Virus record (IMG/VR): IMGVR_UViG_2651869755_000001
DNA: 24,323 nt
Source of the DNA: a virus
Taxonomy: Duplodnaviria > Heunggongvirae > Uroviricota > Caudoviricetes
Strand: one strand, 5' to 3'
Positions 23,917 to 24,323 of this stretch are shown one piece after another. Position 1 is the stretch's first letter. Each line of letters starts with the position of its first letter. Both the position numbers and the translations under genes were made by a program. The notes beneath the pieces were generated by a model. The model worked only from the letters and a program-made list of their open reading frames with translations. It did not search any database and was not told the DNA's origin.

Positions 23917-24075
23917 TCAATACTCGTTGAATGTCAGGTGGCCGCTAACACTGACGTTTGGCCCGTCAGATAACACAAGCTGGAAATTGTCGTCGCAAAC
24001 AGAGCAGCCGAGGTCAATAACTACCGTTTTGTCGTGTTTATGCGCTCGCATGGCGACATCGCGAATAAACACGCT
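23917..24075 (-). pseudogene. 3' remnant of an early or nin-region gene truncated by IS1
   Basis: Minus-strand frame is open from the IS1 junction for 52 codons (…SVFIRDVAMRAHKHDKTVVIDLGCSVCDDNFQLVLSDGPNVSVSGHLTFNEY) to TGA at 23919-23917. No start codon is available within the window. Confidence 0.4.
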
Positions 24076-24076
24076 G

Positions 24077-24323
24077 GGTAATGACTCCAACTTATTGATA
24101 GTGTTTTATGTTCAGATAATGCCCGATGACTTTGTCATGCAGCTCCACCGATTTTGAGAACGACAGCGACTTCCGTCCCAGCCGTGCCAGGTGCTGCCTC
24201 AGATTCAGGTTATGCCGCTCAATTCGCTGCGTATATCGCTTGCTGATTACGTGCAGCTTTCCCTTCAGGCGGGATTCATACAGCGGCCAGCCATCCGTCA
24301 TCCATATCACCACGTCAAAGGGT
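24077..24323 (-). mobile_element. IS1 insertion sequence, partial (right-end inverted repeat at 24077; continues past the window edge)
   Basis: Begins GGTAATGACTCCAACTTATTGATAGTG, the IS1 terminal inverted repeat as I recall it, followed by the InsB C-terminal coding sequence in reverse orientation. Confidence 0.9.
24092..24323 (-). CDS. insB: IS1 transposase InsB, C-terminal part
   Basis: Translation …[73 protein letters not shown] matches the IS1 InsB C-terminus from memory. Open to the window edge. Confidence 0.85.

Follow-up and report, generated by a model that had tools for sequence, protein, structure and literature searches.

An IS1 element interrupts a small zinc-ribbon-type gene located immediately ahead of the antiterminator gene Q in an Escherichia coli prophage resembling Salmonella phage SEN34, and thereby lies between Q and every phage promoter upstream of it. 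This arrangement was recognized at the right edge of a 24,323-nucleotide stretch of DNA, here called the window, in which the last part of IS1 adjoins the last part of the interrupted gene, followed by Q, a lysis cassette and the late genes as far as the left edge (Table 1). The likeliest consequence would be reduced expression of Q and of the late genes through the polarity of IS1, and the event itself was most probably a simple transposition.

The IS1 junction and the interrupted gene

To establish the identity of the element, positions 24077-24323 were aligned with known insertion sequences and all 247 bases were found to be identical to IS1A/IS1B (247/247; E = 4e-126), copies of which occur on at least 5000 plasmids. 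The same bases align with positions 701-947 of a plasmid R100 locus (L015), where the complete 768-bp IS1 occupies positions 701-1468 and is bounded by terminal 23-bp inverted repeats, GGTAATGACTCCAACTTATTGAT and GGTGATGCTGCCAACTTACTGAT. The right arm of the R100 copy (I1) pairs with the left (IRL) arm 722 nt away, and the right inverted repeat (IRR) in the window is identical to I1, with position 24077 as its outermost base. Translation of the minus strand between 24095 and 24322 gave a match to the Pfam family DDE_Tnp_IS1 (PF03400, 1e-41, profile positions 56-131 of 131), corresponding to the C-terminal 76 residues of InsB, whose stop codon is found 15 bp inside the IS1 end. The transposase frame, on the minus strand, reads toward the IRR and toward lower coordinates, as Q does. 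A terminal 23-bp imperfect inverted repeat and an IS1-type DDE transposase reading toward the IRR, two of the features by which an element is assigned to IS1, are thus both present. When compared with elements of the IS1A/IS1B/IS1R type, such as the R100 copies, the visible part is the same in its bases, in its IRR and in the C-terminus of insB and shows no difference, the window covering approximately one third of the element (247 of 768 bp). A preliminary description of this DNA, made from its letters, had placed an IS1 right end at 24077, and the alignment from this base onward confirmed both the element and its terminal base.

Table 1. Location of the features discussed in the text (window positions).
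Feature	Position	Strand	Remarks
Holin gene	22289..22648	-	identical relatives carry the annotation 'phage holin, lambda family'; heads the late cluster
Terminator-like hairpin and T run	22736..22757	-	consensus scan; within the 427-bp non-coding stretch before the holin gene
113-aa ORF, phiTE_015 family, function unassigned	23076..23417	-	follows Q and precedes the lysis cassette; named as in RefSeq for identical copies
Q-type antiterminator, intact, 140 aa	23449..23871	-	PF06530, 5e-42; phrog_79, 1.5e-38
Zinc-ribbon gene, 3' remnant	23917..24076	-	last base of codon 24, codons 25-76 and stop; identical to L001 4518-4677
Predicted 9-bp target sequence, AACACGCTG	24068..24076		deduced from the usual IS1 duplication and the uninterrupted DEC5E sequence
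IS1 right inverted repeat (IRR), 23 bp	24077..24099	-	GGTAATGACTCCAACTTATTGAT on the plus strand; same as R100 arm I1
IS1 3' terminal part	24077..24323	-	247 bp, IS1 positions 768 to 522; cut by the window edge

On the phage side of the junction, the minus-strand frame beginning at 24076 comprises 52 open codons before a TGA (23919-23917), in agreement with the preliminary description. These codons correspond to residues 25-76 of a 76-aa protein of the relatives (WP_000868571.1), the gene for which is complete in E. coli O55:H7 DEC5E (231 nt, L001 4518-4748) and is likewise uninterrupted in the prophages of strains EPSSH018 and CAU16175. The frame is therefore coding in the intact relatives with which it was compared, and the suggestion that IS1 had cut the gene preceding Q proved correct. 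The insertion point lies after the second base of codon 24, and the gene was destroyed: the remnant is without a start codon, a ribosome-binding site and the first CxxC motif. Starting from a TTG within IS1, a hybrid frame of 57 aa would read into the remnant, and no Shine-Dalgarno sequence was seen by eye before this TTG.

Relatives of the 76-aa protein formed only four clusters, from Escherichia and Enterobacter, in a database of 5.8 billion proteins, with identities of 99, 81, 73 and 67%. The query and the representatives of the four clusters have in common, without exception, the first 15 residues and the four cysteines of a CxxC...CxxC arrangement (C18, C21, C48 and C51), and the interrupted gene is a real, conserved gene encoding a small protein of zinc-ribbon type. 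All matches to Pfam and NCBIfam fell far below the cut-offs (best E = 0.013), with no membership of a curated family (TFIIS-type ribbon, YnfU, YacG, Elf1, the InsA N-terminal ribbon and others); there was no match among the PHROGs, and a profile search of the PDB returned weak, cysteine-driven matches only. An AlphaFold model generated from the four-sequence alignment had a pLDDT of 44 and was unusable. Identification as an Ogr/Delta-type late activator or as a Lar-type protein was considered and rejected, both families being absent from the matches even at E <= 10.

Identity to the uninterrupted relatives (E. coli DEC5E, CAU16175 and EPSSH018) is 100% up to position 24076 and ends exactly there, and the IS1 match and the relative match abut at 24076/24077 with neither gap nor overlap. 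The exact abutting of both breakpoints points to transposition rather than mis-assembly. The uninterrupted DEC5E sequence around the target reads ...aacacgctg/ttactagcg... (L001 4669-4686), the stroke marking the breakpoint. The target duplication of IS1 is usually 9 bp, and simple transposition would be expected to have duplicated AACACGCTG at the far end of the element. The far side would then consist of ...GGCAGCATCACC followed by AACACGCTG and TTACTAGCGCAGCG..., with AACACGCTGTTACTAGCG placed after the IRL. A simple insertion of this kind, in which an IS1A/IS1B-type copy would have entered the 76-aa zinc-ribbon gene of a SEN34-like prophage at codon 24 and duplicated the 9 bp of AACACGCTG, is in our judgement quite probable.

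The junction was also sought in other genomes. In 5,426 complete E. coli genomes there were 0 places covering at least 80% of the query, and exact scans of genome, metagenome and viral contig collections did not find the near junction, nor the predicted far junction when a variable gap was allowed for the target duplication. Exact-product look-ups of the truncated open reading frame from three possible starts (57, 44 and 51 aa) gave no match. Among the genomes searched, the IS1 allele is therefore private to this strain.

That the junction is common to no other genome would also fit an assembly artefact, either a chimeric contig end or an insertion carried by a minority of the sequenced cells, as would the observation that the window ends in a multicopy repeat and starts in another repeat-prone gene in the manner of draft contigs. 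However, a mis-join is not expected to fall exactly on the outermost inverted-repeat base without a base gained or lost; this precision rules against a mis-join, although it leaves room for a real insertion in part of the population, and we regard an artefact of either kind as extremely improbable. Less remote, though still unlikely, is an origin in which the IS1 marks the boundary of an IS1-mediated deletion or inversion, or the point at which two IS1 copies recombined. The 5' part of the zinc-ribbon gene together with the origin region, the primase gene and the immunity region would then be gone or located elsewhere in the genome, and what is left would be a late-gene remnant with Q. The gene part that had earlier been called displaced could equally have been deleted or moved in such an event. 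Consistent with this, a single IS1 end is visible in the window, the predicted far junction is absent from all collections scanned (though the near junction is absent too), IS1 is known in general to promote adjacent deletions, and many E. coli genomes are rich in IS1, a median of 10 matching places per genome being found with an IS1-dominated query, which provides substrates for recombination. Yet the junction coincides exactly with the terminal IRR base and falls within a gene that is otherwise 100% conserved, as a fresh transposition gives. Rearrangements are also much less common than simple insertions, and insertions of the simple kind, by IS3 and IS30, are carried by the EPSSH018 and CAU16175 sister prophages. 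Moreover, the 24 kb of late genes is undamaged, so the insertion looks recent. On these grounds simple insertion into the zinc-ribbon gene is preferred.

The prophage, its relatives and the module boundary at Q

Over 90% of its length the window shares 98.4% identity with vB_EcoM-611R5, a prophage-derived record, and over 65% it shares 81% identity with Salmonella phage SEN34. The nucleotide similarity is collinear across the structural module and places the prophage among the SEN34-like temperate myoviruses of Enterobacteriaceae. The genes are arranged in the order Q, 113-aa ORF, non-coding stretch, holin, endolysin, spanin, terminase, portal, head, tail and baseplate, and what remains of the window is taken up, on the minus strand, by the late cluster (lysis, packaging and structural genes). 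The prophage is a SEN34-like myovirus with a Q and a lysis module of lambdoid type, and is not lambda-like throughout. Scans of the entire window against Rfam and for tRNA genes gave no match.

In the late region the sister prophages of EPSSH018 and CAU16175 are 100% identical to the window and have their genes in the same order, their zinc-ribbon gene being intact, and vB_EcoM-611R5 is 98.4% identical in this region, also with the same gene order; the integration neighbourhood of the relatives is the same, on the yfhH-tadA side. The lengths of the late open reading frames equal those in the relatives. The tape-measure gene (7623-9608, minus strand) is uninterrupted in the window, and its product is common in other strains (425 blocks in a look-up). 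In the corresponding gene of EPSSH018 (L003 17039-19024) a stop codon takes the place of a tryptophan, this prophage being otherwise 100% identical, and two IS3-family elements and one IS30 are present in its tail genes. The sister prophages are being hit independently by different IS elements.

The left edge of the window falls within a gene for tail-fibre assembly (Caudo_TAP; positions 1-175), which in the relatives adjoins an invertible tail-fibre segment that carries a DNA invertase together with alternative genes for fibres and their assembly. The presence of repeats at both ends suggests a contig assembled from short reads and broken at those repeats, in which case the right edge of the window is most likely technical and not biological.

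In the relatives, an S24-type repressor is encoded on one strand, and the opposite strand carries in succession a cro-like HTH gene, a DUF5906 primase gene (753 aa; phrog_1156, 6.7e-87), the zinc-ribbon gene, Q and the holin gene. From this gene order it follows that IS1 is positioned between Q and the early region, as had been proposed when the element was first noticed. A 315-bp intergenic region separates the primase gene from the zinc-ribbon gene. In DEC5E, ten GGTGACR heptamers in both orientations are clustered within 265 bp around an AT-rich core (L001 4798-5062); the whole 8.7-kb locus contains 11 such heptamers against 1.8 expected, a number reached in 0 of 200 shuffled sequences. The array looks like an iteron-type replication origin. 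It is situated approximately 120 bp from the IS1 target site, on the far side of IS1 and outside the window.

The position of the zinc-ribbon gene relative to this early region was assessed in two further relatives. An Enterobacter homologue is accompanied by the same repressor, cro-like and primase module and then by podovirus-type genes with no Q, whilst in vB_EcoM-611R5 a different gene is found upstream of Q, similarity to the window ending at 23896, between Q and the zinc-ribbon gene. Taken together, the company kept by the Enterobacter homologue and the end of similarity to vB_EcoM-611R5 indicate that the zinc-ribbon gene belongs to the early or replication module and that Q begins the next mosaic module. 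The best explanation has the zinc-ribbon gene as the last gene of the early rightward operon. On the Enterobacter-associated contig with the zinc-ribbon homologue, the structural region includes adjacent Tad2-like and Acb2/Tad1-hairpin genes (L005 10258-11064), which by Pfam are members of anti-defence sponge families.

Differences from vB_EcoM-611R5 are also found on the other side of this boundary. Its Q gene (L007 14722-15144) is 88% identical in nucleotide sequence to that of the window, compared with 99% for the DNA downstream (23132-22200), indicating that different Q alleles precede a near-identical non-coding stretch and lysis genes. A segment of 281 bp (23133-23413) of the 113-aa ORF is absent from vB_EcoM-611R5, with flanks of 88% and 99% identity, and this difference has the appearance of a small mosaic indel.

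Q and transcription across the insertion

The Q product matched the Pfam family Phage_antitermQ (PF06530) with a score of 143 bits (cut-off 26), residues 1-118 aligning with profile positions 1-118 of 118, and in addition matched phrog_79, 'anti-termination protein Q-like'; in the relatives it is annotated 'antiterminator Q family protein' (WP_001244506.1). No PDB chain was matched at E <= 0.01, which leaves the Pfam membership unaffected. The distance from the start of Q to the end of IS1 is 206 bp (24077 - 23871), the value originally reported. Downstream of Q, PHROG matches of the 113-aa ORF were all to groups of unknown function. The non-coding stretch of 427 bp between this ORF and the holin gene (22649-23075, minus strand) contains a hairpin which, from its position between Q and holin, is a candidate for a terminator overridden by Q (22757-22736). 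No consensus sigma-70 promoter was found by scanning the minus strand of this stretch. A weak candidate was seen by eye, consisting of TTGCGA (22829-22824), a spacing of 19 nt and TATAAC (22804-22799), followed by a -10-like TATGTT (22792-22787).

Whether Q is transcribed from the cro side or from within the 315-bp region, IS1 separates it from its promoter; dependence on a promoter on the cro side is assumed by analogy with lambdoid phages. Consensus scans of the minus strand of the 315-bp region upstream of the zinc-ribbon gene gave nothing convincing. Between the IS1 end and Q, no sigma-70-like promoter was found on the minus strand with consensus scans at 9/12 or at the looser 8/12, and no hybrid promoter at the junction passed either scan. 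Inspection by eye located a -35-like TTGGAG in the IS1 end, and 17 nt on there is only TATTCG, so that a hybrid promoter of the type described by Prentki et al. is not evident. The preliminary description had noted that IS1 can carry outward promoter activity. As a phenomenon this is documented, the formation of hybrid promoters by way of the IS1 -35 box (Prentki et al. 1986) being cited in PMC12095673; at this junction and before Q, no promoter-like site was found. The same source also cites terminator sequences near the ends of insertion sequences including IS1 (Hübner, Iida and Arber 1987).

The absence of a promoter-like site between IS1 and Q makes polarity the likeliest consequence of the insertion, with reduced expression of Q and of the late genes. 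The suggestion in the preliminary description that the insertion may render the prophage defective or alter Q expression is a reasonable one. IS1 is classically polar in both orientations and carries transcription-termination signals, and for this reason most early transcription following induction would end within the element. Q would consequently be under-expressed, and activation of the late genes for lysis, packaging and virion assembly would be weakened or lost. Residual transcription of Q would be limited to weak read-out through the IRR from the InsA-repressed IS1 promoter. As a counterpoint, read-through from the IS1 promoter, or a low level of Q, might suffice for late expression.

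A further interpretation, which we consider very unlikely, is that IS1 acts as a reversible lock that uncouples the intact late cassette from SOS-induced early transcription and that can be re-armed. If this were true, Q would be held behind the InsA-repressed IS1 promoter and the host would keep the prophage without induced lysis, whilst excision of the element or an IS1-linked change in transcription could re-arm the prophage. The different IS hits in the sister prophages would then represent repeated selection for silencing.

Meaning and comparison with known insertions

Insertions of this sort are part of routine prophage decay and strain-level polymorphism, and the present one has little import beyond the strain. 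If polarity operates as expected, the prophage would be induction-defective despite its intact 24 kb of late genes, a defect of relevance only to predicting phage release by the lysogen. For annotation, the 52-codon frame is best labelled as a fragment of a pseudogene, an undamaged late region is not enough for the prophage as a whole to be scored 'intact', and the right edge of the window should be taken as a probable repeat-induced limit and not as a biological boundary.

An insertion sequence interrupting a prophage operon is a textbook situation with nothing new in kind, and the element is IS1 itself. Classical polar insertions are those in the gal and lac operons and those in the lambda PR operon, which lower the expression of O, P and Q. 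As in these cases, the element described here is located between a promoter and the downstream genes of one transcription unit, and Rho- or terminator-dependent polarity on the distal gene would be expected, the distal gene being Q. In contrast to the lambda PR-operon insertions, the phage is a SEN34-like myovirus, and no N-type antiterminator gene is annotated in the part of the relatives' early region that was examined. A second comparison is provided by IS1203v, an IS3-family element that inactivates stx2 in prophages of E. coli O157:H7 in a manner reversible on excision, as described in PMC8136144 (Kusumoto et al. 2000). Both are strain-specific insertions into the Q-dependent late part of a prophage carried by E. 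coli, with an effect on expression that is an expectation for the IS1 described here, and both could in principle revert, whereas IS1203v is found in a toxin gene downstream of Q and the element described here, a member of another IS family, is found upstream of Q in a small accessory gene.
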